Source: Candidatus Sungiibacteriota bacterium (GTDB taxonomy: Bacteria > Patescibacteriota > Minisyncoccia > Sungbacterales > SURF-37). From it: 64,000 nucleotides of DNA. Positions 3,449-20,788 of this stretch are shown here, one piece after another (positions within the stretch are counted from its first letter, which is position 1; each line of letters starts with the position of its first letter). Where the stretch lies: NCBI GenBank assembly GCA_016186145.1, contig JACPMF010000006.1, positions 1,906 to 65,905 on the forward strand, written 5' to 3'. The notes under the pieces were generated by a model, which saw only the letters and a list, made by a program, of their open reading frames with translations, was not told the origin of the DNA and made no database searches. The translations under genes and the position numbers were made by a program.

Positions 3449-3588
3449 AAGCTCACGCGGACATATTCCAAAGACTCCGTCGCGGGCTTTTAACCAGAAA
3501 TACCGGTATTACGATGTGCGAGTTTGAAGACGGCCAATGGCGCATTCATACATGGAATGACCACGCGCATCTCGGATAAATCGATAAT

Positions 3589-3659
3589 TGGGGGATCGTC
3601 TAATGGTAGGACACTGCCCTTTGAAGGCAGGTATCGGGGTTCGAGTCCCTGTCCCCCAG
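3589..3659 (+). tRNA. tRNA-Gln (anticodon UUG)
   Basis: Full cloverleaf drawn by hand. Acceptor TGGGGGA/TCCCCCA, anticodon loop CTTTGAA, T-loop TTCGAGT. CCA is not encoded. Confidence 0.8.
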
Positions 3660-3730
3660 GATTAGAGGGAAGTATCGAGTGACCAGGACGGGTCGTAAAA
3701 GACCCCCCCTATGGCTGATGCTTTCCTTAG

Positions 3731-3803
3731 CTCGTCACCATCACGTCATACCGGCTGAGTGCCGTATCCAAAACGAAAGATCGCCTCCCAAGGCGGTTTT
3801 TCG
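3731..3803 (+). repeat. R1 repeat copy A (ctcgtcacca..gtcataccggctgagtgccgtat.caaaacgaaa plus terminator hairpin)
   Basis: Near-identical to 14911-14987. The hairpin CGCCT-CCCA-AGGCG is followed by a T-run. Confidence 0.8.
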
Positions 3804-3871
3804 TTAGAAATACCTTTAGTATACATATGTATACTTGACTTTTCTATTATAATAGATTATACTGCTTATAT

Positions 3872-6367
3872 ATGGCAATCAATAAAGCAGAATTTATTAC
3901 TGTGGCTGAAATGGCCAAAATGCTTGGGGTTACCCGAGCGGCAATAAACAAGCAAATTTCAGAGAAAAAGATCCCTGCTGAGAAGGTCGGGCGTAATTAC
4001 CTAATCCCCAAAACGGCCCTTCCGGCTGGGCTTGAGGAGCGTATTCGGACTGAGCAAAAGAAAGCCACCGATACGGTTATCAAGAAAAGCCATCATCACG
4101 ATCTCGATTTTGAGAAAGAACTGTGGGCGGCGGCAGACAAGCTTCGCGGCAATATTGATGTCTCCGAATACAAAAACATAGTCCTCGGACTCCTCTTCTT
4201 AAAATATATCTCTGACGCTTTTTACAAACGACGTGAAGAACTCGCGGGTTTTACTCGTGATTCGAAGAATGAGGATTTTTATGTGAAAGACGATAAGGCT
4301 CGCGCCCAAGTTCTTGAGACCAAAGATTTCTATAAGAGTGTTGGTGTGTTCTATGTACCAGAGAAATCTCGCTGGGAATATTTGCAGACAAAGACGATGC
4401 AGTCCGATATCGGGCAAGCGCTCGATAAGGCAATGGATCTTATCGAAGAGGACAACCGCGCCGAGCTTGAGGGGGTTCTCCCTAAAATTTATACTCGCAC
4501 AACCTTGGATCATGCTGTAATTGGCGAACTCGTAAATATATTTTCTCGCATTTCATTCAATCACGACTTTGACAGGGAGAAAGACATACTCGGCCGCATT
4601 TACGAATATTTCCTTGGTCAATTTGCTTCTTCTGAAGGCAAGCGTGGTGGTGAATTTTTTACTGCACGATCGATTGTTAATTTACTGGTAGAGATTCTTG
4701 AGCCATATGAAAATGCGCGGGTTCTTGATCCGGCCTGCGGAAGCGGCGGCATGTTTGTTTCTATGGGTGAATATCTGCGAAAACACGGGCAAGATCCATC
4801 GAAGCTTGCTGTCAATGGCCAAGAGAGTAACCAAACAACACTTCGTCTTGCAAAAATGAATCTCGCGATCCGTGGACTCTCTGGGAAAATTGAGCTTGGG
4901 AATAGTTATTACCAAGACAAGTTTCCCCACCTGCAAGCCGACTTCGTAATCGCCAATCCTCCGTTTAATGCAGAATGGGAACCGTCAAAACTTGCCGACA
5001 ACGATCCTCGCATGACACTAGGAGCCCCCCCAGGCAGTAACGCCAACTTTATGTGGATTCAACACTTCGCGCACCATTTAGCGCCAAATGGTCAGGCTGG
5101 GTTCGTTATGCCAAATGGAGCACTGGCAGTTTCTGGTAGAGAGGGTGATCTTCGTCAGAAATTGATCGAAGCGGATCTTGTCGACGCAATAATCACCTGC
5201 CCTTCAAAGCTTTTCTATAACGTCACTCTTCCAGTATCTCTCTGGTTCCTTTCGAAAAATAAATCCGGAGACCGTTTCCGTAGTCGCTCTGGCGAGATCC
5301 TATTTGTGGACGCTAGGGATACATTCGAGCAAATTTCTCGTAAGCAAGTTGTTTTCAACCCTACGCAAATCCAGAAAATTGCAAACACTGTTCGAGCATG
5401 GCGCGGAGAAAAGAGGTATGGCGAATACAAGGATGTCCCGGGTTTTTGTAAATCTGTTGATGTTAATAGAGTAAAAAAGAATCACTATATCTTGAGTCCA
5501 GAAAAATATGTTGATTCCGTTGTGATCCAGGGAGATGGGATATCATTCAAAAATGATCTTGAAAATACATCCAAGTTTTTAAAACAGCAGACAATAAAAT
5601 ATAAAGAGTTCGATCATAAAATATCCACCAGTCTAAATGAATTTTACCCGAGCTCTGATTGGAATAATATAAACTATTCATCGACAAGTGTTTTAGAAAG
5701 CCTAGCTTCTAAAATATTTGACGAGTGGTTTAATCGTTACCATATTCCTGGACGTAAAAAACTGAAGTTGGTTGAGCAGGATGATAAATTAATTCCGGAA
5801 GAATGGGGCGTAAAAAAGTTGGACGAAGTGGTGGATATTTCTATTGGACGAACTCCACCGAGGGAGCAGTATGAGTGGTTTTCTAGAAATGCAGAGGATA
5901 TAAAATGGATCTCCATAAAAGATCTCGGCACCAGTGGTGCATTTATACTTGACACCGAAGAGCGTCTAACAAGAGCAGCGGTTCAAAAATTTAATATTTC
6001 AATTATTCCAAAAAATACCGTTATCGTTAGTTTTAAACTCACGGTGGGACGTGTTGCGATTACGACGGAGAACATGTTGTCGAATGAGGCTATAGCGCAC
6101 CTGAAAACAAAAAAACAGCCACACATTCCATTCCAGTACCTCTATTTACTCATGAAAAAATATAATTATGCCTCTCTCGCTAGTACTTCTTCCATTGCAA
6201 ACGCCGTAAACTCAAAGACTATAAAAAATATTGAGATCGCAATTCCTGACCCTCAAACCCTGAGTCTTTTCGAGAAGATCATGACGCCTATCTTTGAAAA
6301 GATTTACGCGCTGCAGACAGAAGAAAGGGAGTTAAAAAAACTGAGGAATCAGCTATCGGTCAACTAA
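3872..6367 (+). CDS. hsdM: type I RM methyltransferase fused to a single-TRD specificity subunit, with an N-terminal HTH
   Basis: Excisionase-like HTH (AEMAKMLGVTRAAINKQI). HsdM N-domain, motif I LDPACGSGGMF and motif IV NPPFN. The C-terminal ~230 aa is an HsdS target-recognition domain. Confidence 0.85.
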   Translation: MAINKAEFITVAEMAKMLGVTRAAINKQISEKKIPAEKVGRNYLIPKTALPAGLEERIRTEQKKATDTVIKKSHHHDLDFEKELWAAADKLRGNIDVSEYKNIVLGLLFLKYISDAFYKRREELAGFTRDSKNEDFYVKDDKARAQVLETKDFYKSVGVFYVPEKSRWEYLQTKTMQSDIGQALDKAMDLIEEDNRAELEGVLPKIYTRTTLDHAVIGELVNIFSRISFNHDFDREKDILGRIYEYFLGQFASSEGKRGGEFFTARSIVNLLVEILEPYENARVLDPACGSGGMFVSMGEYLRKHGQDPSKLAVNGQESNQTTLRLAKMNLAIRGLSGKIELGNSYYQDKFPHLQADFVIANPPFNAEWEPSKLADNDPRMTLGAPPGSNANFMWIQHFAHHLAPNGQAGFVMPNGALAVSGREGDLRQKLIEADLVDAIITCPSKLFYNVTLPVSLWFLSKNKSGDRFRSRSGEILFVDARDTFEQISRKQVVFNPTQIQKIANTVRAWRGEKRYGEYKDVPGFCKSVDVNRVKKNHYILSPEKYVDSVVIQGDGISFKNDLENTSKFLKQQTIKYKEFDHKISTSLNEFYPSSDWNNINYSSTSVLESLASKIFDEWFNRYHIPGRKKLKLVEQDDKLIPEEWGVKKLDEVVDISIGRTPPREQYEWFSRNAEDIKWISIKDLGTSGAFILDTEERLTRAAVQKFNISIIPKNTVIVSFKLTVGRVAITTENMLSNEAIAHLKTKKQPHIPFQYLYLLMKKYNYASLASTSSIANAVNSKTIKNIEIAIPDPQTLSLFEKIMTPIFEKIYALQTEERELKKLRNQLSVN

Positions 6368-6371
6368 AATC

Positions 6372-9300
6372 ATGAACCCACTCAACGAAAATAATCTAAC
6401 AGAGCAATCACTCATTGAATGGCTTCAAGCTCAGGGTTATGAGTATGTTTATGGTCCAGCAATTGCTCCGGGACAACCTAGCGCAGAGCGTGAGGATTTT
6501 CGTGGTGTTGTACTTAAAAATCGTTTGCTTTCTGGTGTCCGTCGTTTCAATCCCCAGCTTCCAGCTGAACAAGCAGAACAAGTCGTGGATGATATCGCCG
6601 GATATCATAATGCTGACCTCGTTCTTGGCAACAAAGAAATGTTCACCCTCCTTACCGAGGGGGCGAAGAAGACGTGGCGAGAAAAGGGTGAGGAAAAGAC
6701 CGAAGTCGTGAAGTTGATTGACTTCACAAATGTGGACGCGAACGAATTCTTGATCGTCAACCAGTTTACAATCCAGGGTATCGAGAACGTTTGCCGCCTC
6801 GATGGCGTTGTTTTTGTAAACGGTCTTCCTCTTGGAGTCCTTGAACTCAAGAGTCCCGTACGTGAGGAAGCGACGATCGGTCAGGCGTACCGCGACATAG
6901 AATATTACAAAAGGGAAATACCGAGAATCTTCTTCTATAACCAAGTCCTTTGCTTATCTGACCTTACAGAAGCACGTCATGGAACGATATCTTCATCATG
7001 GGAGCGATATAGCGCGTGGAAAGGAATTGAATCAGAAACGGATGCACCTAAAGGAGCGGCGGAGCTTGAGGTTCTTGCTAGGGGTCTTTTTAACAAGGCG
7101 CGGCTTCTCGATGTAATTCAGAACTTTACGGTTTTTGAGGCCGACGGAGATGGTGACGCGGTGACGTACACAAAAAAATCTGCTTTGTACCATCAGTACT
7201 ACGGCGTAAATAAGACGATTCAAAGCACTGTGCATTCAGTGCTTGGAGAGCGGGAAAGAAAAATTGGTGTTTTCTGGCACACGCAGGGTTCGGGTAAGTC
7301 ACTCTCAATGGTTTTCTATGTGAATAAAACAAAGAGCATATCAGAGCTTAAAAGTCCCGCTTATGTATTTCTTAATGACCGCGAGGATCTCGACGACGCG
7401 CTATTTAAAACATTTAGTCGTACTGGGTATGGCACGCTCGCAAAACGCGCTTCGAGCATAAAAGATTTGAAAGATCGACTTTCCCACTTGGGAAGTGAAC
7501 TGATATTTACAACCATTCAGAAATTCCAAGAAGATCCTGACGCGAACGCCGTTCTCTCGGAAAGAGAAAATATTATTGTGCTTACTGATGAAGCACACCG
7601 CACGCAATACAGCATGCTTGCGGGTAATGTGCGACAGGCATTACCAAACGCGAGCTTTTTGGGCGTGACCGGAACTCCAATTTCACGGCATAATCGCAAC
7701 ACCATGCGTGTTTTTGGTGATGTAATAAGCGCATATAAGATTGGCCAGGCAGTAAAAGATAAAGCAACCGTCCCTATTTACTACGAGGGCCGTCTTGTTC
7801 CTCTCCATCTGGCTGATCAATTTGTTGATAGCAAACTCGACGAAATTCTTGGAGAAATTATCGTCGATGAAAAAGCAAAAGCCCGTAAAGAATGGGCCGT
7901 CCTTGAGGAGGTTGTAGGCGCGCCAAGCCGTATTGATCAAATATCAAAAGATATCGTTACTCATTTCAATAACCGTCCCATCGAGGGCAAAGCAATGGTA
8001 GTTACAATGAGTCGTCCTATCGCCGTCGCTATGTATCAAGCAATCAAAAAGATTTCCGGTACTCCAGAGTGCGCAGTGGTAATTTCCAAAATGGAGGACT
8101 TCCCGGGACAAATTCAAACTGAGCACGATGTGAAAAAACTCGAGAAGCGGTTTAAAAAGACGAATGACCCACTTCGTTTGGTTGTCGTCTGCGATATGTG
8201 GCTTACCGGATTTGATGTGCCGAGCATGCACACAATGTATCTCGATAAACCCCTTAAGAACCATGGGCTCATGCAAGCCATTGCTCGCGTGAACCGCGTC
8301 TACAAAGATAAGCCGGGTGGTTTAATTGTGGACTATATCGGTATTGCCGAACACTTAAAGAAAGCCTTGGCTATTTATGACTCTGATGTCCAAAAGGAAG
8401 CAATGATTCCTCTCGATGAAGTAATTAGTGAGATGAGAAAATTGCACGGAGAAATTTCTCGCTACTTTACGAATATCGACTTTTCTGGTTGGAGACAAAA
8501 GAAAGGCGTTGAACTGGTCAATCTCTTCCAGTCGGCAATGAATGAAGTTATCTCAGAGAATGGCCGGCTTTCTGATGATCGAAAAATGGCTTATATGGGT
8601 GGAGTTTCCAAACTTTCCCAGCTCCATGCCCTCGTCATGCCCGCAGAGGCGGCGATGAAGATTATAACCGATGTTCAATTCTTCCAGTCAATCCGCGAAG
8701 CAATCAACAAACAGACAGTGGTGCCGCATATTATCTTTCCCGAAGCAAAAGAGAGTGCCATCCGCAGCCTTATACAAGACGCGGTGCAAGCAGAAGGCGT
8801 AATTGACCTATTTACCAAAGAAGGCGAAGAGAAAAAAAGCATCTCCATCTTTGATAGTCGATTCGCAGAAGAAATAAAGAAGGTTAAATACCAAAATCTT
8901 GCCATTGATACGGTTCGCAAAATGCTTGATCAAGAAATAAAGGTACGCTCTCGTACAAACAAGGCGCGCTATGAAACGATGCTTACGCTTTTAACCGAAC
9001 TAATTGAGAAATACGAGAATAATGTTATTAGTTCGGCAGAGATCATTAAGCATCTACTCGAGATTGCCGACGAGATAAAGAAACTGGACGAAGAGAGCGA
9101 GGAACTCGGACTTTCCGAAGAGGAGATCGTCTTTTATGACACTCTTGCAGCCGATCCAGATCTCAAAGAAGCAGGGATTGATATCAAAGAATTCGTAAAG
9201 GAACTTACAAAACGTATTCGGCGCGACTTGGCTATTGATTGGACCAATAACGAAACTATCAAAGCGCGCATTCGCCAAAATGTTCGGTTGCTTTTGCTCC

Positions 9301-9401
9301 AGAAGGGCTTCGTCGAGCAGATGCAAACAGAACGACTAATAGAGTCGATATATCAGGAGACGGTGAGGGTGTACCGGGAATACTTACCAGTACCAGCGTA
9401 A
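6372..9401 (+). CDS. hsdR: type I restriction enzyme R subunit
   Basis: Walker A TQGSGKS and DEAH box LTDEAH. Length 1009 aa. Starts 5 nt after hsdM-S. Confidence 0.9.
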   Translation: MNPLNENNLTEQSLIEWLQAQGYEYVYGPAIAPGQPSAEREDFRGVVLKNRLLSGVRRFNPQLPAEQAEQVVDDIAGYHNADLVLGNKEMFTLLTEGAKKTWREKGEEKTEVVKLIDFTNVDANEFLIVNQFTIQGIENVCRLDGVVFVNGLPLGVLELKSPVREEATIGQAYRDIEYYKREIPRIFFYNQVLCLSDLTEARHGTISSSWERYSAWKGIESETDAPKGAAELEVLARGLFNKARLLDVIQNFTVFEADGDGDAVTYTKKSALYHQYYGVNKTIQSTVHSVLGERERKIGVFWHTQGSGKSLSMVFYVNKTKSISELKSPAYVFLNDREDLDDALFKTFSRTGYGTLAKRASSIKDLKDRLSHLGSELIFTTIQKFQEDPDANAVLSERENIIVLTDEAHRTQYSMLAGNVRQALPNASFLGVTGTPISRHNRNTMRVFGDVISAYKIGQAVKDKATVPIYYEGRLVPLHLADQFVDSKLDEILGEIIVDEKAKARKEWAVLEEVVGAPSRIDQISKDIVTHFNNRPIEGKAMVVTMSRPIAVAMYQAIKKISGTPECAVVISKMEDFPGQIQTEHDVKKLEKRFKKTNDPLRLVVVCDMWLTGFDVPSMHTMYLDKPLKNHGLMQAIARVNRVYKDKPGGLIVDYIGIAEHLKKALAIYDSDVQKEAMIPLDEVISEMRKLHGEISRYFTNIDFSGWRQKKGVELVNLFQSAMNEVISENGRLSDDRKMAYMGGVSKLSQLHALVMPAEAAMKIITDVQFFQSIREAINKQTVVPHIIFPEAKESAIRSLIQDAVQAEGVIDLFTKEGEEKKSISIFDSRFAEEIKKVKYQNLAIDTVRKMLDQEIKVRSRTNKARYETMLTLLTELIEKYENNVISSAEIIKHLLEIADEIKKLDEESEELGLSEEEIVFYDTLAADPDLKEAGIDIKEFVKELTKRIRRDLAIDWTNNETIKARIRQNVRLLLLQKGFVEQMQTERLIESIYQETVRVYREYLPVPA

Positions 9402-9405
9402 TTTT

Positions 9406-11961
9406 ATGGACAGTCGTATACCATTTGTAAAAGAAGTCGCCAAGGTCATCATTGAACGCCATGAAAAAGAGGGCGGCTCCTTTATTTTTGGTATATCCGG
9501 CAAGTGGGGTGAGGGTAAAACAACTTTTCTGGACGAATTGAAAAAAGTATTGGAAAAAGATAATTCATCATTCAAAGTTGTGGATATAAATCCATGGAAA
9601 TTTTCCGTCGACAGAATTTCTTTTTTGAGAAACTTCCTGCGAACTTTGCACGGAAAATGTGATTTGGGGGGTGACGATGATTTAAAACAGTTAGATGTTG
9701 ATACGTCAAAAAATGCAATCGATTGGGGACGATTTTTAAAATTTGTCGTATTGTTTGGAGTCATTTGTTGGGCTTTTACTTATGCCCCTCTTTTTAATTT
9801 TATAATTGGCCTTCCTGCGCAATGGCAATTTTTTCTAACCGTTTTGTTGCTCCCAATTGTCTTAGCAGCCGTTCAAGGCGTAGTAACTGTCCAAAAGACA
9901 GATCACGCTATAGTTACTTTAGACAAATTTGATGATCTACTTAAAAAAATATTAAAGAATTTTGAGATGGCGGGAAAGAAGATCATTGTTTTTGTCGATG
10001 ATTTGGACCGTGTAACTCCCGAAATGGCGAGAGATGTTCTCGATAATCTGCGGACGTTCTTTGATAAAAAAGAAATGACCTTCGTCGTAACAGGAGACCA
10101 TACAGTACTCGAAGGACATCTCGGGAGAAGTCTTCTTCCCGACGAAGAATCTTCTGCTGCTCAGCTAGAAGAAGGACGTAGATTTATGAAGAAAATCTTT
10201 AATGTTTATTGGCGACTTCCACTCCCAATCAAAAAGGGGATCCAAGACTTTATTGGAGGTGAGTTCAAAAAGAGGGACTCAGGGTTGAAAGAAGTGTTCT
10301 CTGAAGAGAGCCAGAAAATTACCTTCGCTACATATCTGGAGAAATATTTTGAAAGTAATTTCAGGCAAATAATCAGATTTTTAGACACTGTTCTTTTTAA
10401 TTTTCAAATCATAAAACAAAAAGCTGAAGGCGAAGACACACAAGCTCCTTACTTCAAGGATATGCTGACCAATCCGCTGCTTGTGATACGTATTCTTATA
10501 ATCCAAGAGTTGTGCGCCCCTCTTTTCGACAAAATGGTTAGAGATGTTTCCATTTTGCAGGGGCTTGAATACGCAGTCGAGAAAAAGGATTCTTCTAAAA
10601 CAACTGAGATCCTAGGACAAGGCAAGGATACGCTTTCTCCTAGTCAACGAGCTTTTATAGAAAAGTTTATTTATGAGGAACCACGTTTTTACAAAGGATC
10701 TCGCCTACAGGTCTTAAACCTTCAGCCCTATCTATCGTTAGCTGCTGACGTAAGCTTCGGCGATCAGCGTGGTCCGTCCAGCGAAGACTTTATTACGGCA
10801 CTTAACGGAGGAGATCCCAAGGGAGTAAAAAATGATCTCCTTTCAATGGGAGATGCAAAAGCAGAGGAGGGCGCAACTGCTTTGGTAACCCAGCTACCCC
10901 CCATGATTGATGTTACTCAAAAATTGGGCGCAATAAAAACACTTCTTGTCGCCTTGTCTGATTCACCCACCGAATTAACCATACATAAAATATTTGCTGA
11001 TCAATTAAGCAAGCTTGATTACCATTTTGTAAATAATGCTGCGTCTAATCTAAAAATGGAAGTTTTAAACCTTCTCTTTGGTTGGCTCGACCTGATTTCA
11101 GACCCCACTGTGATAAGTGCGTTTGAAAGTAAATTTACTCTGAAGGATATTACTGAATTTAATGCTGTAAATATTGAAGGAGCAGGTTCTTTCAAAAGTT
11201 TGGTTTTGGCGAAATGGATTAAGGAGTATTACTCTAAGCAAAAACCCGATGCCATAAACGCTATGGTTGCACACTTTCCAAAACTAAAAATTGAGAAAGT
11301 GAGGGAGCAAATGGATACTATTGATAAAATCTTGGTTACTGACCTTATTGGAGACTCCAACGCACTGTTAAGGGAGAACCGCTTTGCTTTGTTGAGAAAC
11401 TATACAACTAAAGGGGCTGAGATGCTCAAAGAAAATGTTCTGAACCAAGTTTCTGGTTTTGATCAAGGAATTACTGCGTGGGCTATCGCAAAAGCAAATG
11501 AGGAAAAAGCTCTGTGGACGATAGGTGAGCTTGAGACAAAAATCCTAGAAAAAATTGAGATTTCGGCGGACTTCAATGCCCTTAATCAGGGATTAAGGTT
11601 TGCTTTAACCAATAAAGTTGGATCCCCAGAGATGATTTGGCCCAAGCTTCTTCCTAAACACCAGAAAAGTATTCTTGAAAATTTACCAGCAATTATTGAT
11701 GACGCTTCACTTCAACCGATTTCACCACCACAAGCTTATGCAAATCAACTTATGGATGCAGTAGTAGCAAAAATTAAGACCATTCCGGAGGCTGACCAAG
11801 CCCGCTGGCTTAGTTATATAGTTAAAGGTAAATGGCCTTGGATTAATCTGGCTAAATACCCTATTACCAGTAAGTTTAGAAATATGAAGAAGTCTAAAAA
11901 CGAAGATCTTAAGAAGAATTTTGCAATTACTGAAGAAAGCTGGGTAGAGAAAAATGATTGA
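9406..11961 (+). CDS. KAP-family P-loop NTPase
   Basis: Walker A GKWGEGKTT and Walker B IIVFVDDLDR. Two TM helices inserted between them are the KAP hallmark. Starts 4 nt after hsdR. Confidence 0.8.
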   Translation: MDSRIPFVKEVAKVIIERHEKEGGSFIFGISGKWGEGKTTFLDELKKVLEKDNSSFKVVDINPWKFSVDRISFLRNFLRTLHGKCDLGGDDDLKQLDVDTSKNAIDWGRFLKFVVLFGVICWAFTYAPLFNFIIGLPAQWQFFLTVLLLPIVLAAVQGVVTVQKTDHAIVTLDKFDDLLKKILKNFEMAGKKIIVFVDDLDRVTPEMARDVLDNLRTFFDKKEMTFVVTGDHTVLEGHLGRSLLPDEESSAAQLEEGRRFMKKIFNVYWRLPLPIKKGIQDFIGGEFKKRDSGLKEVFSEESQKITFATYLEKYFESNFRQIIRFLDTVLFNFQIIKQKAEGEDTQAPYFKDMLTNPLLVIRILIIQELCAPLFDKMVRDVSILQGLEYAVEKKDSSKTTEILGQGKDTLSPSQRAFIEKFIYEEPRFYKGSRLQVLNLQPYLSLAADVSFGDQRGPSSEDFITALNGGDPKGVKNDLLSMGDAKAEEGATALVTQLPPMIDVTQKLGAIKTLLVALSDSPTELTIHKIFADQLSKLDYHFVNNAASNLKMEVLNLLFGWLDLISDPTVISAFESKFTLKDITEFNAVNIEGAGSFKSLVLAKWIKEYYSKQKPDAINAMVAHFPKLKIEKVREQMDTIDKILVTDLIGDSNALLRENRFALLRNYTTKGAEMLKENVLNQVSGFDQGITAWAIAKANEEKALWTIGELETKILEKIEISADFNALNQGLRFALTNKVGSPEMIWPKLLPKHQKSILENLPAIIDDASLQPISPPQAYANQLMDAVVAKIKTIPEADQARWLSYIVKGKWPWINLAKYPITSKFRNMKKSKNEDLKKNFAITEESWVEKND

Positions 11962-12084
11962 GTGGTCTATATCATAGCTGGAGGTTAATGAGCGATGGGG
12001 TAAGCTATCGACTAGGCATATTAAGCGGCCGGTTCCATGGTTCGTTACGAAAGAGAAGAGGATTTAATTAAACTGGTTACGTAG

Positions 12085-13488
12085 ATGTTTACGAGTGAGA
12101 ATTTTAAAAAAGTTGCTGATCTTGTCTATAAAGATTACTACAAATATCTCTTTAAGCACGCCGTATCTTTATTGCGACGTTCGAGACTTCCGTATCTTAG
12201 AAGGAATAATCTTTGGATAGGTGGAATTCAGCAAAACATGGTTAAATATAGACTCGGATTTGAAGAAACGGTCAGAAAGGGTAAGTCGATGGTCCCAAAA
12301 GACGACAAGGAGAAAAAAGCATTAGATATTGCACTGAGATCAAATAAAGAATTCCTCCGTGTCTTGAAGGATATTGGTGATGGTATTGCCTGGAGAAATC
12401 TAGACTATAGACGCTCATTAATTCGACTTATGTCGGAACATGCACCGACTGGCGATATTGGTCCGGATGCAGAGCGACTTATTTTGCTTTTAGGCGCTAG
12501 GAAAAAAGTAAGCGACCGAGTGATAATCAACGATTTGACCCACTGTCTAAAGATCGCCGATTTAACAGTTATCACATCAAAAAGTAGAATCTTTATTTAT
12601 GAAGTAAAGGCGCGAAAAGATAAGACCGAGATTATAGGTATATCAGAAATTTCAAGACGTATCCAAAAATATGGACAGGCAAGAAAGCAGGCTATTTCGC
12701 ACTGGATAGTTCAAGACGCTTTTATAAATAAAAAAGTTAAGACCCCCAAACTTGAAATAAGAATCGTAGATTTAGACTTTGTTTTTCACACTCACATCAG
12801 TAAGGTAAATCAATTGATTAAAGAGTCGGATAACAAGAACTTCTCCAACGCATTATTGGAAGGGGGATACCACATAGAAATTTGTGCGTTGGACAAGGTT
12901 TTTGAGAAATCAGGTCAGGAAAAAATTAAGGAACAATTGAATAAACTCAAGCCCTTTAATCCCCATAAAGAAGGGTGGTCCGATATGACACTTTGCATCT
13001 CAAACTATGATACCTTTTATTCGAGCATCAACGACAGATTTACGAATTTTACGCCGTATTCGGTTCTACCATTATCTGCTCGAAACTGCGTTAGGTTAAC
13101 GATGGGGCAACTTTATATTCGTATCTGCTTCGATTTTATGAAGTTAAAACAGAAATTCGAAGAAGCTGGATGGAGTGTCGAGGTTAAAGACTGGACATCA
13201 TGGGAATCTCAAAACAAGGAAACCATCAGAAAAATTAGGGAGGGTAAGGGTGGTTTCTTAGAGCATTCAGTTAATGAGTATATATTCAAAATTTCTAAAC
13301 AAGGCGAGAACGGTAGGTATACCCAGGATTTTCCGGTAAATCTAGTGATCATTATGCTCTCGGCTTTTTATACAACGGACTATCTCATTGGTATGGCCGA
13401 GGCTGTTTATCAAGATGCAAAATTAAACAGCCGAGGTGGTGGTTTATCAACGTTTAATTGTCTATATGAACGATGTATTTTAAGATGA
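12085..13488 (+). CDS. hypothetical protein with a PD-(D/E)XK-like nuclease motif
   Basis: 467 aa with low GC. LKIADLTVITSKSRIFIYEVKARKD fits the D...ExK core. Confidence 0.5.
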   Translation: MFTSENFKKVADLVYKDYYKYLFKHAVSLLRRSRLPYLRRNNLWIGGIQQNMVKYRLGFEETVRKGKSMVPKDDKEKKALDIALRSNKEFLRVLKDIGDGIAWRNLDYRRSLIRLMSEHAPTGDIGPDAERLILLLGARKKVSDRVIINDLTHCLKIADLTVITSKSRIFIYEVKARKDKTEIIGISEISRRIQKYGQARKQAISHWIVQDAFINKKVKTPKLEIRIVDLDFVFHTHISKVNQLIKESDNKNFSNALLEGGYHIEICALDKVFEKSGQEKIKEQLNKLKPFNPHKEGWSDMTLCISNYDTFYSSINDRFTNFTPYSVLPLSARNCVRLTMGQLYIRICFDFMKLKQKFEEAGWSVEVKDWTSWESQNKETIRKIREGKGGFLEHSVNEYIFKISKQGENGRYTQDFPVNLVIIMLSAFYTTDYLIGMAEAVYQDAKLNSRGGGLSTFNCLYERCILR

Positions 13489-13581
13489 TCCCTGCTCGCG
13501 GCGAACGCTGGTCCTATTCAGAATCAGAGGATTCGACAGCCGGCTGGCGTAGAGCATTGAACTGTAATTGAATAAAATCAT

Positions 13582-14235
13582 ATGCTAGACGCTGAAACAT
13601 TCAAAAAGTTTACAAGGCAAGCCAACCTTTCTCATCAGCAGTTTTGTGTTTGGTTCGCATTTAACAATGAGTATGCCAAACACCAGGATCGTTGGAACAA
13701 ATTTTATCCCGAAAGTTACTTTGCACCGGAAGATTTTGATAAGACGAAAGGATGTAAGTATAAAAACTTCTGGGGTGTAACTTTGGCCTCAACGCAGCAC
13801 GGCTGGATTCTGGGAATAGCAAGACTCTTTGATCCCGCATTTCATCCTTTTGATAAAAAACAGGAAAAACCTCGAATCTCTTTCGACTATATTCTTAGAA
13901 GACTTAATGATCAAAACTTGTCAGATAAACTGAGGCAAGAGTTAGATTGGCACAAAAATGTAATTGAATCTGTAAGAAAACATAGGGATAATGTTCTTGC
14001 GCATAACGATGCGAGCTTTGATTATAAAAAAATTGGGCCAGGAATTGAAAATCTTTTTGAATGGTTAGAAGATGTTATTTCAAGAATAAAAAAAACAGAG
14101 CCACACCTTAGTAGTTGTGGTGTAGTGAACGTTAAGTATCACGAGAAATTATCCCAATGTGGCGTAGATGAGGTTTTTGAAACTTTACTGCTTGGGGAAA
14201 AGCATGAGGTAGATGAGTCGAGGAGAACCTCATAA
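13582..14235 (+). CDS. hypothetical HEPN-like (Abi-type) protein
   Basis: 217 aa. RKHRDNVLAH fits the Rx4-6H HEPN motif (AbiD/F-like R..RN..AH). Confidence 0.4.
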   Translation: MLDAETFKKFTRQANLSHQQFCVWFAFNNEYAKHQDRWNKFYPESYFAPEDFDKTKGCKYKNFWGVTLASTQHGWILGIARLFDPAFHPFDKKQEKPRISFDYILRRLNDQNLSDKLRQELDWHKNVIESVRKHRDNVLAHNDASFDYKKIGPGIENLFEWLEDVISRIKKTEPHLSSCGVVNVKYHEKLSQCGVDEVFETLLLGEKHEVDESRRTS

Positions 14236-14250
14236 AAGCGATGATCATAT

Positions 14251-14655
14251 ATGTTTCCACTGGAAACTAAATCTTACGAAGCAAAATCGCTAGCCGACTC
14301 TTTGCTTGGCAATCCGTATCTCCAAGTTGAGTCCGCAGAACTCCCCGAGAGCGGAGGAGTTTATTTGTTCAGAAATGATGCAAATGAAATAGTATATATA
14401 GGCAAGGCGCGAAATCTAAAGAGAAGAATCCGCATTGACCACTTAAGCCAGGAACTGGGCGATACTATGAGTGCTTTTAGAAGAAGCATTAATAAGGTGC
14501 TTGGAATTCCTTTCGGCCATGAGATGAAAAGCTGGATATGCAGCAATTGCAAAATTTCTTTCATCCAGATAGATGATCCAGATATGCGCAGTTTGGTGGA
14601 GGCGCTTTTAATCGCTGCCGTCAGATCGAAGTCATTGCTCAATCATGATAGTTAG
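14251..14655 (+). CDS. GIY-YIG nuclease domain protein
   Basis: GVYLFRNDANEIVYIGKARNLKRRI. Lies 16 nt downstream of the HEPN-like gene. Confidence 0.7.
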   Translation: MFPLETKSYEAKSLADSLLGNPYLQVESAELPESGGVYLFRNDANEIVYIGKARNLKRRIRIDHLSQELGDTMSAFRRSINKVLGIPFGHEMKSWICSNCKISFIQIDDPDMRSLVEALLIAAVRSKSLLNHDS

Positions 14656-14674
14656 TGTTCACGGCATATGAAAT

Positions 14675-14709
14675 GAGACACACATAGTAGTGTCTCATTT
14701 GTCTCATTT
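14675..14709 (+). terminator. rho-independent terminator
   Basis: Hairpin GAGACAC-8 nt-GTGTCTC followed by ATTTGTCTCATTT. Confidence 0.6.
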
Positions 14710-14910: not shown

Positions 14911-14987
14911 GACTCGTCACCATTTATGGCATACCGGCTGAGTGCCGTATTCAAGAACGAAAAACCACCAATGTCGGTGGTTTTTCG
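14911..14987 (+). repeat. R1 repeat copy B with terminator hairpin
   Basis: gactcgtcaccat..ggcataccggctgagtgccgtattcaagaacgaaa, then CCACC-AATGTC-GGTGG and a T-run. Confidence 0.8.
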
Positions 14988-15056
14988 TTTTGTACAAAAT
15001 AAACATGTTTTGATTCCGATATTTATTTTTCTGAGCTTATAAATTAGATTTAGTCT

Positions 15057-15953
15057 TTATTGGATTCCCATGGGGTTGCCAAATACCGGTACAAAGTTGG
15101 TTGGTTCTACTATGTTTCCTGTTTCCATTCCAATCGCTCGCATATCCGAAGAGTTCTCGATGCCGATGGCTATTCCATTCTCAGTACTATATGTATTGGC
15201 ATTTGGGTCTATATCAGCCTTAATCATCAATGTCTTGCTTAATCTCTCCGGTGTAACGAGCAGGAAATCCAAGCTAATCACGGCTTTGCCGTCTAAGAAA
15301 CTGCTCGCTGTTCCGATTCGGGTGCTGCCGTCAAAAATCTGAATGTTGAGAAGGTCGGCATCTGTCCCGCCGTTTCTTGTCAGCGTCAGTTGCTGGATTC
15401 CTACATTTTCGTTTCCAGCAGTAAAAGTAATCGCGCTAAAGTTATTCCATGCACTCCCGCGCTCATAGTAGGCAGACGGAGGTGTATTTGGAGAAAGCGC
15501 GACCGTAAGCGGTGCGGGAGTTTTTGGTTGAAGCGTTCCATGTACTTCCGTGTAGGCGATAACCATGCCGTTAGAATTTTTTGCCTCAACGCGAACCGTG
15601 AGCGGCACTTCGGTTTTGCTCCTCAAAACATTGGCGTCAAGAACGATGCCGAACCCGTATTTGCCCGCAGGGCGCAAGGACGGAAAAACTTGTTCCACAC
15701 CCTGCGATATTTGTTTGCTGTCAGTTGATGCGGAGACGATAAGTTGGCCGCCCAGTTTCAGGATGGGGCCGTCCCAAAACCCTTTAGCAATAGTGCCGCC
15801 GATAGGAAGCGTGTCTTGCTCTCCGGTAATTACGAATCCTTCAGAAAGCGAGGAAATCATTATTGGCCCGCCTGCCGCGCCCGTAAAAAGAGGTAGTAGC
15901 GAGATACCAATGATTATTGCGAATGATGTTTTCATATAAGTATATTGTAGCAT
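15057..15953 (-). CDS. secreted hypothetical protein
   Basis: 298 aa with an N-terminal signal peptide (SFAIIIGISLLPLFTGAAGG). Confidence 0.6.
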   Translation of the reverse strand: MLQYTYMKTSFAIIIGISLLPLFTGAAGGPIMISSLSEGFVITGEQDTLPIGGTIAKGFWDGPILKLGGQLIVSASTDSKQISQGVEQVFPSLRPAGKYGFGIVLDANVLRSKTEVPLTVRVEAKNSNGMVIAYTEVHGTLQPKTPAPLTVALSPNTPPSAYYERGSAWNNFSAITFTAGNENVGIQQLTLTRNGGTDADLLNIQIFDGSTRIGTASSFLDGKAVISLDFLLVTPERLSKTLMIKADIDPNANTYSTENGIAIGIENSSDMRAIGMETGNIVEPTNFVPVFGNPMGIQ

Positions 15954-15964
15954 ATTGAAAGGTT

Positions 15965-18061
15965 TTACTCTATTGTCAGCGGAACGGTTATTTGTCTCCC
16001 GTCTCTTAAGAGCAGACCAATAAAATATTCTCCGGAGGATATACTTTCTGGTATGAAAACGCCATTTATATGTGGTTCACAACTTGTTTTAAAAAAATAA
16101 TTAAGATTGTTTAAAGAAATTGTCATATTTAACACTATATCATCGAATCCCAAGGTGTTATCTCGAGAAAGTATTAATGCGGCGACTTCATCCTGTTGGA
16201 ACCCCGCGCTTGCACTTTGAAACCTTAAAAACCCTCCTTTTGCAACACTGTTGACACACAGTTTAAATTCCTTTACGACCACATTAGAAGGTTGATGCGC
16301 AGGCTGAAAAAGTATTTCCACCGCATCCGCTCGTGTTTTGAACTTTTTAATTTTTTTTAATAAATCATTTTTAGGTATGATTACAGGATCGTCATCGAGA
16401 TTGATCCATTGGTTGGATAATAACCTTGCGAGGGTTTCGATAGTAATATTTTCGTCTGATATTTCTGTGTGCGAAAATTTTGTCATGCCGCGGTCGTCTC
16501 TTTTTTCATGATTGACCACTTCGCTACGCCTCTCATTTTCTTCTTTAGTTAAACAAATAACTCCGAAAAGATAATGATTTGGAATTTGCTCATCGTGAAT
16601 TAAGTTGAAACTCGTATGATTACCTCTCACGCTAGAAAAACTCGGCTCGGGTAAATAGTCAAAAGTACTCCCATAGCTATTTATGTTGAAGTGAGAACAA
16701 AAATTGCTAACGTATAGCGCGTTATCTATGTCCCATTTTATTTCAGTAGTCGACGGGAAAGAAGATACCATGATGGGGCCATCGTTTCCGTTAGCCTTGA
16801 CCCCAACATAAGGATTGATAGGAGCACAAACATCCTGTGGTACGGCCACCTTCACGCCATCAGAAACTATTGTATGACTAGAAAAATCTCGCGCGTTATA
16901 ATGCTCTACCTTTAGAACGTATTCGTATGTTTTCCCAGTAACAATTGTTCCATCGCCGTATTCGGTTCCGTTCATTGAAGACAGACTGTGTATTTCTTTG
17001 CCATCTCGATATATAGTCTGGGACGCAATCAAATCGCCAGCCGGAATTGAGTCCAAATTCCACTCTAAGATAACAGTGGGAACAGCTCCTGTATTATCAG
17101 CTCCACGGTCACAATATGTTTTATAACGAAGATTTACCGTCTTTCCTTGCACCGCAATTGAAGATAGCTGTTGAGTTGCGGGTGGTTGTTGGTTTTTTTG
17201 CGGTTGTTCGTCTTCTTTTTGTTTTGTTTCTGTAGCTGGCCTTGTTACAATTTGAGTACTTTCCTTAGCAATTTCATGATGTTCCAACTCATTTGCTATA
17301 AGTTTTGCAATCTCCTCCGGAGCGGAGACACCAGTTTTTACTAATTTGTTCAACTCAACAAGACCAAACGCAAGTTTTGTTGCGGAAACTTTAAGGCCGA
17401 CTTCTTCGGAAATGGCTTCGGCAACTTTGCTGACAATCACATCTTTTGCCGCGTTTCTATCTGCGGTGGAAACGCTTTTGAATTGCGAGTCAAGCCAGTA
17501 ATTTAAGAGCATACTTTCAGCCCCCATCAAGGTGCTACCGAACTTTCCTCCAGCGGCCTTTCCCGCAAGCCCCGGAATACTTGCAGACAATTTTCCGATT
17601 TCATGCTCAATCTCTTGAGCTTTCTCTATGTTTCGGCTCCATACCTCCAACGCCGCGGAATCATAGAGATGCCAAAGGCGCTGGTAGGAAGTACTTCGTT
17701 CAATGTGCTCGTTGGCTATATCGGTATTACCGCTTATAAGAAACTTTTCGGCAATGCCGAGTTCCTGCAAAGCGTAATTTTTATAAGCGTGCGCGGAAAG
17801 ATAAAGTTCATTGTATTCGTCTAAGTGCGGCTGGCGTATTCCGAGAACAAACCATTTGCGCACGTTATTTAAAAACCCATCTGCTGGTTCAATGATTAAA
17901 TTAGGCGAGTCCGGCGTCTCAAGAATTATTTTTCTTGATTGCGAGATAACATTTTTGAGGTCCGGCATCTCGATGGCATTCGCTTGAGAAAAACTAAAGA
18001 TGAACCAGCCAGATATGACCAGCATTGTTGAAATTACAAATATGATTGGGTGTCTTTCCAT
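15965..18061 (-). CDS. large secreted or membrane-anchored hypothetical protein
   Basis: 698 aa. N-terminal TM/signal segment and a Q/P-rich linker. The segment around TVNLRYKTYCDRG..TYEYVLKVEHYN is a beta-sandwich, possibly fibronectin type III-like. Confidence 0.6.
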   Translation of the reverse strand: MERHPIIFVISTMLVISGWFIFSFSQANAIEMPDLKNVISQSRKIILETPDSPNLIIEPADGFLNNVRKWFVLGIRQPHLDEYNELYLSAHAYKNYALQELGIAEKFLISGNTDIANEHIERSTSYQRLWHLYDSAALEVWSRNIEKAQEIEHEIGKLSASIPGLAGKAAGGKFGSTLMGAESMLLNYWLDSQFKSVSTADRNAAKDVIVSKVAEAISEEVGLKVSATKLAFGLVELNKLVKTGVSAPEEIAKLIANELEHHEIAKESTQIVTRPATETKQKEDEQPQKNQQPPATQQLSSIAVQGKTVNLRYKTYCDRGADNTGAVPTVILEWNLDSIPAGDLIASQTIYRDGKEIHSLSSMNGTEYGDGTIVTGKTYEYVLKVEHYNARDFSSHTIVSDGVKVAVPQDVCAPINPYVGVKANGNDGPIMVSSFPSTTEIKWDIDNALYVSNFCSHFNINSYGSTFDYLPEPSFSSVRGNHTSFNLIHDEQIPNHYLFGVICLTKEENERRSEVVNHEKRDDRGMTKFSHTEISDENITIETLARLLSNQWINLDDDPVIIPKNDLLKKIKKFKTRADAVEILFQPAHQPSNVVVKEFKLCVNSVAKGGFLRFQSASAGFQQDEVAALILSRDNTLGFDDIVLNMTISLNNLNYFFKTSCEPHINGVFIPESISSGEYFIGLLLRDGRQITVPLTIE

Positions 18062-18705: not shown

Positions 18706-20382
18706 ATGAAATTATTTTATTTCCCAAAATTCGTAATGCTCTCTTTCGCAATCATTGCGCTTTCGTTTTTTGCGGTCTTTTTCGTTACCTTTGCTCTGAA
18801 TGAAGTATCGGCACAAATTAGCAATATTACATACCCAGTAGCAGAGTTGGGGAGTTGTGTCGGCCAGCAAGAATGTGAAGCTTACTGCGGTGTGCCAAGC
18901 AATTATTCAAAATGCGCCGCATTTGCCCAAAAAAATAATTTAGCAATAGAAATACCCGACGATAAAAAAGCCGTTTTTGCGGCGATGCAAAAAGGAGAGA
19001 GTCCGGGCGGATGCAAGGATGAAGCATCTTGCCGCAATTATTGCGAAGATATTGACCACATAGAGGAATGCGTCAATTTTGTGGAAAAATTTAACTTGGC
19101 CAGTTCTGACGAGTTAAAGGAAATACGCCAGATGGCCGATGTTAAAAAAGCGGGTGTGGCGTTTCCGGGAAACTGCAAAACCAAAGAAAACTGTTTAAAG
19201 TATTGTGATAATTCCGATAACGCGGTTGTATGTATGGAATTTGCCCTGAAAGCCGGATTTATACCGAAAGCAGATACCGAGGCGGTTAGTAAAATTCTTC
19301 CTTATCTGAAGAGCGGCGGGAAATTACCCGGTGGGTGCACGACAAGGGAATCGTGCGACACATACTGTAATGACGACGCTCATGTTACTGAATGCATTAA
19401 CTTTGCCGAAAAAACCGGATTTGTATCAAAAGAGGATGCCGACATAGTGAGGAAGACCGGCGGTAAGAGTCCGGGAAATTGTAAATCGAAAGAGGCATGC
19501 GACAGTTACTGTAAGAGTGAAACGCATATTGATGAATGCGTGGACTTTGCGGTAAAAGCCGGTCTTATCTCAAAAGAAGACGCAGAAATGGCCAAAAGAT
19601 TCAAAATTACTTCCGGCCCCGGCGGATGCAAGAGCAAAGCCGATTGTGAAGCCTTCTGTGTCGTAAACCAGGATACTTGTTTCCAATTTGCCAAGGACCA
19701 TGGAATGCTTAGCGAAGAAGATCTCAAGAACATTGAGGAACAGAAAAAGTTCCTGGAATCGCTTGGTAAGGCCTCTCCGGAGTGGTTTGCCTGCATGGAG
19801 AAAGAGCTCGGTTCACCCTTTTTTGAACGATTTAAGGCTGGAAAATTAACACAAACAGAAGCCAAATCTCCAGCCCTGGAAAAAGCGCAGAGAAAATGCG
19901 GGGGCGAGATGGCCCAGGAAAAAGAGGCCGCCTGTTTGGCACTTTCCTGCTCCGAGTTTGAGTCCTGTCTAAAAGCTCTGCAGTCAAGCGGCGGAGACCA
20001 GGACGGAGAACAACAAGAAGAAGGCGCTCCGAATCCGGCAGTTAATGCGAAGGCCCAATCCTGCCAACAAGAAAAAATTAACGCGTGTTTGGCAAAATCG
20101 TGCAGTGAATTTGACGCTTGTGTAAATGCTCTTCAGCAAGGTGGTGGAAAACAGGGCGGACAACAGCAGCAGGGAGAGTCGGATCCGAAGCTAAAAGCAA
20201 AAATCCAGGCCTGTACTGATGAAAAAATTAACGCGTGTATTGCCAAACCATGCGGTGAATTTCAAGCCTGTCTTAATTCTTTAGGCGCTGGAGGTGAAGG
20301 CGGAGCACAACAGGGCGCACCGAATCCGGCTGTTCAGTCCAAGCTTATGACATGCTTTCCTCCGCCTCCTTCAGGTGAATGA
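18706..20382 (+). CDS. secreted Cys-rich tandem-repeat protein
   Basis: Signal/TM at the N-terminus. Six ~50 aa repeats of PGGCKxKExCxxYCxxxxHxxECxxFAxKxGxxSKED. Three C-terminal repeats of CxxEKINAC(L/I)AKxCxEFxACxNALQQGG. Confidence 0.7.
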   Translation: MKLFYFPKFVMLSFAIIALSFFAVFFVTFALNEVSAQISNITYPVAELGSCVGQQECEAYCGVPSNYSKCAAFAQKNNLAIEIPDDKKAVFAAMQKGESPGGCKDEASCRNYCEDIDHIEECVNFVEKFNLASSDELKEIRQMADVKKAGVAFPGNCKTKENCLKYCDNSDNAVVCMEFALKAGFIPKADTEAVSKILPYLKSGGKLPGGCTTRESCDTYCNDDAHVTECINFAEKTGFVSKEDADIVRKTGGKSPGNCKSKEACDSYCKSETHIDECVDFAVKAGLISKEDAEMAKRFKITSGPGGCKSKADCEAFCVVNQDTCFQFAKDHGMLSEEDLKNIEEQKKFLESLGKASPEWFACMEKELGSPFFERFKAGKLTQTEAKSPALEKAQRKCGGEMAQEKEAACLALSCSEFESCLKALQSSGGDQDGEQQEEGAPNPAVNAKAQSCQQEKINACLAKSCSEFDACVNALQQGGGKQGGQQQQGESDPKLKAKIQACTDEKINACIAKPCGEFQACLNSLGAGGEGGAQQGAPNPAVQSKLMTCFPPPPSGE

Positions 20383-20646: not shown

Positions 20647-20788
20647 TCCACCATGTCATACCGGCTGATGGTTCGACAAGCTCACCATAAAGCGCCGCTT
20701 GTCCTGTTTATGCCGAGCCGTGTCGAGGGAGGCGGAGTCGAAGGATATTCAAGAACGAAAAGTCCGCTGTAAAGTCAGCGACTTTTCG
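20647..20788 (+). repeat. R1 repeat copy C, split by a 77-bp insert (20669-20745) with inverted ends
   Basis: ccaccatgtcataccggctga | insert tggTTCGACaag..gaGTCGAAgga | tattcaagaacgaaaag, then hairpin CGCTG-TAAAGT-CAGCG and a T-run. Confidence 0.7.

Follow-up and report, generated by a model that had tools for sequence, protein, structure and literature searches.

A KAP-family NTPase gene appended to hsdR in a repeat-bounded island of Candidatus Sungbacteria and its recurrence at the 3′ end of restriction-modification-like operons

Results

The KAP gene and its operon

A 64,000-nt stretch of contig JACPMF010000006.1 (assembly GCA_016186145.1), referred to below as the window, was analyzed; the contig belongs to a metagenome-assembled genome (MAG) of Candidatus Sungbacteria, a lineage of the candidate phyla radiation (CPR, Patescibacteria). 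The window harbors a + strand gene at 9406–11961 encoding a KAP-family P-loop NTPase of 851 amino acids (aa), hereafter KAP, which was identified by its open reading frame (ORF), by Pfam and PADLOC searches, and by an AlphaFold2 (AF2) model; the protein is 100% identical to NCBI HYW90_01495. Directly upstream on the same strand lies hsdR (6372–9401), encoding the 1009-aa restriction subunit of a type I restriction-modification (RM) system. The hsdR stop codon TAA at 9399–9401 is followed by TTTT and then by the KAP start codon ATG at 9406; this junction (9399–9408, +) contains the 4-nt spacer that a preliminary description of the locus had reported. The assignment of the upstream gene as a type I R subunit also proved correct, HsdR comprising the domains HSDR_N, SWI2_SNF2, T1R_D3-like, and T1RH-like_C and matching TIGR00348 with 575 bits (cutoff 285). 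The first gene of the operon, hsdMS (3872–6367, +), encodes an 831-aa type I methyltransferase with an N-terminal HTH_17 domain, fused to a specificity domain with a single target recognition domain (TRD). Its product matched HTH_17, HsdM_N, N6_Mtase (E = 3e-96), and Methylase_S in Pfam as well as MTase_I and Specificity_I in PADLOC. Judged by sequence, HsdM, HsdS (TRD), and HsdR are all present and intact with the domains expected of a type I system.

The KAP ORF is a real gene and not a chance ORF, because 213 homologues were found, its start codon agrees with the N-termini of orthologues, and a related locus, L060, repeats the 4-nt junction. The homologues were full length down to ~30% identity. 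An antisense ORF at 9384–9764 was rejected as an artefact, its conservation merely mirroring that of the KAP coding sequence.

Direct reading of the 20 nt upstream of the KAP start revealed no Shine-Dalgarno-like purine run, and KAP is probably translationally coupled with hsdR; a 4-nt spacing also separates hsdMS from hsdR (6367/6372). Six genes follow one another on the + strand without large gaps in the order hsdMS, hsdR, KAP, orf467, HEPN_AbiU2, and GIY-YIG. Ahead of hsdMS, the best promoter-like site on the + strand, a sigma-70-like sequence (TTGACT-17-TATACT; 3835–3863, +), agrees with the consensus at 10 of 12 positions and is a possible operon promoter, in a scan that used consensus matches only and in which the total number of sites in the region was not above shuffle expectation. 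The strongest terminator-like hairpin of the genomic island described below (14671–14700, +; 11-bp stem; fold −16.2 kcal/mol, z = −2.35) likely ends the transcription unit running from hsdMS to GIY-YIG. On the + strand, the scans placed no terminator-like site over the hsdR/KAP junction, and the stretch from 7694 to 10962 was free of promoter-like sites. Hence, the six genes probably form a single transcription unit.

Anatomy of the KAP protein and its family

Pfam assigned residues 4–328 to KAP_NTPase (PF07693; E = 2e-32, 113 bits, cutoff 20); the other Pfam matches at E ≤ 0.01 were AAA_22, nSTAND_NTPase5, and AAA. PADLOC matched PifA (7e-22), QatA, and PDC-S20, with the NTPase domain alone being aligned. 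In an alignment of 33 homologues, the Walker A motif or P-loop GISGKWGEGKT at residues 29–39 (9490–9522, +) showed invariant G29, S31, G32, W34, G35, G37, and K38, and the Walker B motif IIVFVDDLDR at residues 193–202 (9982–10011, +) invariant D198, D199, L200, D201, and R202. Both motifs are intact, as had been stated before, and the transmembrane (TM) insertion noted between them could be confirmed as a two-helix hairpin at residues ~107–159 (9724–9882, +). Hydrophobic segments were located at residues ~110–134 and 141–161 with Kyte-Doolittle peaks of 1.8 and 2.5, and the AF2 model places the hairpin helices at 107–125/127–135 and 138–159. Almost every sequence of the 33-homologue alignment shows the hydrophobic pattern; between D99 and F175 no residue is invariant in this alignment, the hydrophobicity being kept.

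The AF2 model, calculated with the 33-sequence alignment, reached a mean predicted local distance difference test (pLDDT) score of 85.6. Residues 461–851 (10786–11958, +) form a C-terminal all-alpha solenoid, the presumed sensor domain, modeled entirely as helices and mostly with pLDDT above 85–90; a Foldseek search gave HEAT/ARM-like matches for it. Where the conserved N-terminal core meets the C-terminal domain lies the loop motif LSLAADVSFGDQRGPSSEDF (residues 443–462; 10732–10791, +). It is nearly invariant in the family, D453 and G456 being invariant and D448, R455, and F462 nearly so, and pLDDT falls below 50 at residues 448–454. A search with the C-terminal domain matched only 61 representative clusters of 1.84 billion, always at the C-terminus of 850–930-aa proteins of the same architecture. 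Compared to the closest relatives, identity is ~65% in the solenoid as against 81–86% in the N-terminal half; thus, the C-terminal part evolves faster.

Membership in several known systems was considered and rejected. For QatABCD, the NCBIfam QatA model scored 56 bits against a cutoff of 600, and the downstream genes gave no Qat matches in PADLOC or NCBIfam. For RADAR, no RdrB adenosine deaminase domain was found in neighboring genes; RdrA was the top PDB match, with a TM-score of only ~0.24 and a profile E-value of 8e-4 over just 55 residues, and unlike KAP it is soluble and lacks the TM hairpin. No STAND NTPase (Avs-like) model matched the KAP protein above threshold, and the ABC-ATPase anticodon nucleases PrrC and RloC gave no match in Pfam, PADLOC, and NCBIfam. 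A viral fold search in BFVD yielded generic AAA+ matches only, and a plasmid collection searched with the KAP core two weak, uninformative ones.

The uncharacterised 851-aa KAP family hardly occurs outside CPR bacteria. Further orthologues come from records assigned to an anammox planctomycete (P0013/P0123, a 16,871-nt contig labelled Candidatus Wunengus sp. YC60) and to a Clostridia isolate, a gammaproteobacterial MAG, and an actinomycete MAG (L012, L014, L015), the actinomycete copy being frameshifted; these assignments could represent cross-phylum transfer or binning error. On the Wunengus contig, a partial KAP of 81% identity occurs together with an HsdR of 93% identity; MAG binning may have misassigned some taxa, this contig among them.

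Genes upstream of KAP orthologues

Loci with KAP relatives were collected from genomes (55), metagenomes (80), and viral contigs (2), and seven orthologues had annotated contexts. A census was taken of the 23 distinct loci with a full-length KAP orthologue and upstream sequence. At nine of the 23 loci, KAP was directly preceded by a same-strand RM-like operon at a gap of ≤40 nt, a count that includes two loci with a small intervening ORF. These operons represent at least six architectures, and KAP was always found 3′ and on the same strand. Type I systems account for three loci, namely the window, L060, where KAP follows a 91%-identical HsdR after the same 4-nt gap, and L056, where a different type I lineage is arranged as hsdR, YgjP, and KAP orthologue. 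The remaining architectures comprise an EcoRI-type methylase with a GmrSD_N-HNH nuclease (L001), a helicase with an Eco57I/MmeI-type enzyme at a gap of 3 nt (L007), an Eco57I-type enzyme overlapping the KAP start (L011), a PLD-SNF2 helicase with an Eco57I-type enzyme and a 189-aa ORF (L014), an SNF2 helicase with a 1767-aa Eco57I-type enzyme overlapping KAP (L067), and an 837-aa N6_N4 methylase protein (L013). At L063, a PLD-SNF2/Eco57I pair is located 2.2 kb upstream of KAP.

For comparison, distant KAP genes were surveyed with jackhmmer at ~115 loci, where HsdR was found upstream once (L029) and an N6_N4 methylase once (L127). The frequency of RM-like upstream operons, 9/23 for orthologues versus about 4/98 for distant KAP loci, differed with a Fisher p of 3e-5, the RM seeds of the survey having been taken from orthologue loci. 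A Pfam scan of the 67 immediate same-strand upstream neighbors of distant KAPs served as a partial unbiased control; it revealed RuvC 15 times, ResIII twice, and HSDR_N and GmrSD_N once each, and the 25 top-ranking families included no methylase. For the 851-aa KAP family, the enrichment at the 3′ end of RM-like operons is genuine. Enrichment of KAP beside RM genes had been singled out as a check in the preliminary description, and it was borne out. A superfamily-wide rule that KAP genes lie next to hsdR was rejected: among the ~115 distant loci only L029 conforms, a Sphingobacterium locus with a PifA-like KAP 1 nt after hsdR, and none of 77 HsdR-baited IMG/VR loci contained a KAP gene within 8 kb.

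The KAP tree was compared with these contexts. The closest relative of the window protein, and its sister in the tree, is the KAP of L001 (76% identity), which follows the EcoRI-type methylase and HNH nuclease. L001 carries at 7341–13925 a different island at the same polIII–tRNA-Gln site as the window, in the order HTH, EcoRI-type methylase, GmrSD_N-HNH nuclease, KAP, and large serine recombinase; its tRNA (7341–7413) is 82% identical to the tRNA-Gln of the window. The L060 protein is sister to that of L064, a locus without RM. Type I-linked KAPs do not form a group, each of them having a non-type I relative as sister. All of these relationships argue against KAP being a dedicated accessory subunit of HsdR, which would bind the type I enzyme and sense or regulate stalled translocation or restriction alleviation. 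The 4-nt gap with its probable translational coupling, conserved in L060, and the KAP orthologue behind hsdR-YgjP in a second type I lineage would fit such a subunit; HsdRs of 74–91% identity without any KAP and the 77 IMG/VR loci do not, and we consider this explanation very improbable. The preliminary description had proposed a functional coupling of this kind, with sensing of stalled translocation as an example. It was not supported, since the RM partner types are unrelated and 13 of the 23 orthologue loci lack an adjacent RM module, and a link specific to HsdR is undercut by the fact that the closest relative follows a non-type I system at the same chromosomal site.

In five of the 13 loci without an adjacent RM module, KAP is divergent from a large serine recombinase or a ParB-methyltransferase (ParB-MTase) gene at the edge of an element. 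Large serine recombinases, ParB-MTase, Shedu SduA_C, and Schlafen genes occur among the neighbors of orthologues, and no downstream partner gene was conserved across the orthologue loci. In Flavobacteriia (L017–L046), distant KAPs were found directly downstream of ruvC in 15 loci, a conserved and apparently housekeeping synteny that differs from the defense context of the window.

The frequent placement beside large serine recombinases and beside ParB-MTase or terminase-like genes of integrative elements would also suit a non-immune role, in which a membrane NTPase serves the mobile element (maintenance, addiction, or exclusion of competitors) or a host membrane process and hitch-hikes in islands. 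The housekeeping context of the flavobacterial KAPs after ruvC points in the same direction, and PifA has been argued to act against T7 only secondarily (PMC13552941). Four other KAP proteins, however, have experimental defense activity (PMC13552941), and the genes co-located with KAP are those of RM, CBASS, AbiU2, Shedu, and Schlafen. Furthermore, the family is patchy across phyla with one pseudogenised copy, and its C-terminus evolves fast, as is typical of sensors in conflict. We therefore give a non-immune role only a low probability.

Cargo behind hsdR in close relatives

The window HsdR is part of a strongly conserved lineage, with more than 120 clusters at ≥70% identity. The genes behind hsdR were determined for a small sample of HsdR baits, the nearest relatives of the window HsdR. 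Two of them are followed by further KAP genes that overlap the hsdR stop codon (ATGA): a 1082-aa KAP at L144 (HsdR 94% identical) and a 942-aa KAP at L146 (89%). This survey of the KAP-hsdR neighborhood, which had been recommended earlier, thus added two KAP subfamilies to that of the window. The 851-, 942-, and 1082-aa forms share only ~25% identity in the NTPase domain, and their C-termini are unrelated. Other relatives carry different cargo. L145 (91%) has an unknown 816-aa protein downstream, and L147/L148 (89%) an operon of the cyclic oligonucleotide-based anti-phage signaling system (CBASS; patatin and SMODS cyclase) after a 4-nt gap. At L228 (85%) nothing follows hsdR, an AAA_15/21 ATPase being embedded upstream of it, and at L149/150 and L151 (74%) a small ORF or a serine recombinase is located downstream. 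The varied cargo behind HsdRs of 85–94% identity identifies the hsdR 3′ end as a general docking point for exchangeable defense cargo. KAP, in turn, exchanges one RM partner for another freely, and this speaks against a specific interaction between HsdR and KAP. Of the RM-associated accessory module that had been suggested for the window, recurrent docking on RM-like operons stands, and specificity for HsdR does not.

Further genes are embedded within the RM operons of relatives, namely DUF4145, CHAP with Trypsin_2, an AAA_15/21 ATPase, and unknown proteins of 445–448 aa. The HsdM fusion to a half-size, single-TRD HsdS with an excisionase-like HTH_17 N-terminus at 3872–6367 recurs in L146 (824 aa) and L151 (813 aa); the other close relatives have separate hsdM and hsdS genes.

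The stop-codon overlaps bear on an explanation according to which KAP would guard restriction as PrrC or PARIS do, sensing anti-restriction (DNA-mimic inhibitors or neutralisation of RM) and triggering a membrane-based abortive response. The 942- and 1082-aa KAPs at near-identical HsdRs, the 3′ same-strand position at 9/23 orthologue loci behind at least six architectures, and the distant KAP 1 nt after hsdR in Sphingobacterium would all be in keeping with it. PARIS, whose binding of Ocr does not depend on EcoKI (PMC12707154), offers an analogy: a sensor of a generic anti-restriction factor would likewise be compatible with unrelated RM partners and with copies that stand alone. Extended to several CPR KAP subfamilies (851, 942, and 1082 aa), this would make them dedicated restriction back-ups that answer RM failure or anti-restriction at the membrane, and such a role would explain the repeated 3′ same-strand fusion to unrelated RM types. 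The slot is generic, however, as CBASS sits at this very junction and does not need RM, and at 13 orthologue loci no RM module adjoins KAP. Searches of Pfam, PADLOC, and NCBIfam detected no homology to PrrC, RloC, or PARIS, and promoter-less cassettes borrowing RM operons for their expression may account for the association. Guarding by the window KAP is accordingly judged unlikely, and the wider back-up role of the subfamilies equally doubtful.

The island and its other genes

The six genes lie on an ~11-kb island that adjoins a tRNA-Gln gene and has direct repeats of ~75 nt at both ends. The tRNA-Gln (UUG) gene was located by ARAGORN at 3588–3660 (+) and marks the site of insertion. The left copy of the imperfect repeat (3731–3805, +) contains at 3748–3767 the exact 20-mer ATACCGGCTGAGTGCCGTAT, shared with the right copy (14913–14989, +); the chance expectation for such a shared 20-mer was 0. 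Over 75–77 nt the two copies have 63 matches, with a local score of 72 compared to a maximum of 31 in 200 shuffles. A third, partial copy (19/21) occurs at 20648–20668, 5.7 kb past the right one. The three copies 3′ of tRNA-Gln suggest that two islands accreted in tandem at a single attachment site. Between the second and third copies lie ORFs at 15057–15953 (−), 15965–18061 (−), and 18706–20382 (+) of 298, 698, and 558 aa, for which no match was found in Pfam, PADLOC, NCBIfam, and PHROGs; they may be uncharacterised island cargo.

GC content is 0.385–0.42 inside the island as compared to ~0.46 outside. At third codon positions (GC3) it amounts to 0.45 for hsdR, 0.35 for KAP, 0.38 for orf467, 0.34 for AbiU2, and 0.44 for the GIY-YIG gene, and these steps between genes, a compositional signal, indicate a mosaic origin. 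Type I RM systems on genomic islands have been described for Patescibacteria (PMC12455944). A layout common to the related loci consists of a large serine recombinase, an RM operon, cargo, and a ParB_N/N6_N4 methylase. Related elements carry ParB-MTase, and L060 additionally a GpA-type terminase. Neither a recombinase nor ParB-MTase was found in the window copy; classification as a prophage was rejected, the window lacking ParB-MTase, terminase, and recombinase, and the element is termed a repeat-bounded island only.

Three cargo genes follow KAP. orf467 (12085–13488, +) gave no match in Pfam, PADLOC, NCBIfam, and PHROG, and its family consists of 10 clusters. An invariant D159…E173-x-K175 is reminiscent of PD-(D/E)xK nucleases; the AF2 model is poor (pLDDT 55). 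As an effector partner of KAP, orf467 was rejected, being absent from every KAP orthologue locus. The second gene (13582–14235, +) belongs to the HEPN_AbiU2 family (PF18734; E = 1.5e-7, 31.5 bits, cutoff 26.8) and represents abortive-infection-type cargo; an AbiU2 gene is present in the related element L147 as well. The last is a small gene with a GIY-YIG nuclease domain (14251–14655, +; Pfam GIY_YIG_2 and GIY-YIG).

Discussion

A type I RM operon is extended at its 3′ end by an intact KAP NTPase gene that encodes a membrane hairpin and a fast-evolving solenoid, and the family of this gene recurs behind unrelated RM systems as well as without an adjacent one. We favor, and hold to be reasonably probable, that KAP is a self-sufficient membrane-anchored NTPase immune sensor of the PifA, EF_KAP, and Tmn kind, which rides on RM operons for its expression. 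The autonomy of KAP is deduced from the loci without adjacent RM, the lack of a conserved downstream gene, and context swaps among close relatives, which switch between type I, EcoRI-type methylase/HNH, and no RM system. In the window, its neighbors RM, AbiU2, and GIY-YIG constitute a defense context.

We infer the defense function, trigger, and effector step of KAP as follows. The gene would be mobile defense cargo spliced onto the 3′ end of the type I RM operon and co-transcribed with hsdR. The two-helix hairpin would tether the P-loop domain, which is Orc/Cdc6-STAND-like, to the membrane on its cytoplasmic side, and the fast-evolving solenoid would recognise a phage-derived cue. NTP-dependent switching or oligomerisation might then alter the state of the membrane or of cellular energy by leakage, ion export, or NTP turnover, and phage replication would stop. 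Defense would be layered, with RM cutting unmodified DNA first and KAP catching the phages that get through. The tie between KAP and RM would consist in shared expression, with no physical or mechanistic dependence on HsdR.

Several points weigh against this autonomous sensor. The hairpin contains no invariant polar residue; hence, a defined channel is not indicated. The directional 3′ RM enrichment (9/23) exceeds what loose clustering in defense islands predicts, and it may reflect a functional tie beyond co-expression. Additionally, the presence of three KAP subfamilies behind one HsdR lineage looks non-random, in a sampling that is small and partly biased (nearest-relative HsdR baits, orthologue-derived RM seeds).

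The preliminary description had stated that no mechanism is established for KAP NTPases; this is outdated in view of the leakage caused by PifA, of single-gene KAP defenses (PMC13552941), and of the related Tmn (PMC13001434). Four single-gene KAPs from the RADS study (PLoS Biol 2026), EF_KAP and three metagenomic ones, which have unknown C-terminal regions and lie beside serine recombinases, are anti-phage, and EF_KAP needs both its Walker B motif and its C-terminal region (PMC13552941). The window KAP resembles this type in its KAP NTPase with membrane helices, one of them inside the NTPase domain of the EF_KAP-type proteins, in a long C-terminal region without a known domain, and in the serine recombinase neighbors that its family has on mobile islands; the EF_KAP type acts as one gene. 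It differs in its distinct C-terminal alpha-solenoid, which is confined to ~60 clusters, mostly of CPR, in that the recombinases at the loci of its family are large serine recombinases, and in that the gene is often located at the 3′ end of RM operons.

With PifA, responsible for T7 exclusion by the F plasmid, KAP shares the NTPase domain (PADLOC E = 7e-22, residues 8–276). Only positions 25–258 of the 720 in the PifA model align, so that homology does not extend over the full length, and the C-termini are unrelated. PifA is triggered by T7 gp1.2 and gp10, and these triggers are not transferable to the window KAP. Defense by way of membrane permeability lesions is the classical view of how KAPs act (PMC13001434). 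According to work cited in a study of Tmn, PifA causes membrane depolarisation and leakage (PMC13001434); unlike the window KAP with its hairpin, PifA is reported to lack TM helices (PMC13001434). Tmn itself, a single-protein defense, is a P-loop NTPase of the membrane whose P-loop domain contains two TM helices and whose sensors are of the ARM/HEAT type; it recognises a phage protein, brings about plasmolysis, and acts in synergy with neighboring systems, among them an RM-embedded PrrC (PMC13001434). The likeness of KAP to Tmn is one of architecture only, namely two TM helices inside the P-loop domain and alpha-superhelical sensor regions. KAP, unlike Tmn, matches Pfam KAP_NTPase, and no YobI/Tmn model was among its Pfam and PADLOC matches at E ≤ 0.01. 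Tmn is characterised by decamer formation and Mg2+ export, whereas the hairpin of KAP has no conserved polar residues.

Embedded defense genes are well known from the operons of type I RM, BREX, and DISARM, and they usually work independently (10.1101/2024.01.29.577857; PMC11411939). Among the RM-linked precedents, PrrC is dependent, and TgvAB, BrxU, and HECs are independent (10.1101/2024.01.29.577857; PMC11411939; PMC12707154); for the guarding of restriction, the precedents are PrrC and PARIS (PMC12707154). KAP is comparable to PrrC/EcoprrI, PARIS, TgvAB, and the Hma/BREX/RM candidates found through “guilt by embedding” in being an extra defense gene wired into an RM operon. In contrast to these, it is appended after hsdR and not inserted between subunits, and in sequence it is unrelated to all of them. 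The near-exclusive occurrence with type I RM that would be expected of a PrrC-type guardian was not observed, with 3/23 loci type I-linked and 13 without adjacent RM. Any dependence of KAP on RM is unlikely to be specific.

The general principles, defense by KAP proteins and defense genes embedded in RM operons, are already established; the docking of KAPs on RM operons was not found in the literature searched. CPR bacteria, whose genomes are tiny, are mostly without CRISPR and are believed to depend on RM. What defenses they carry beyond RM matters for understanding the phage pressure that much of bacterial diversity experiences. The locus is a case of a serine-recombinase-borne island family whose type I RM operon provides a platform for expression, with exchangeable second-line defenses (KAP sensors, CBASS, unknown proteins) fused at the hsdR stop codon. 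If co-expression is all that links KAP to RM, the finding is one ordinary instance of an RM-operon-embedded defense gene; the repeated wiring raises the testable question of whether it serves co-expression or the guarding of restriction. The 851-aa KAP family provides a compact single-protein candidate for how membrane-inserted KAPs sense and stop phage.

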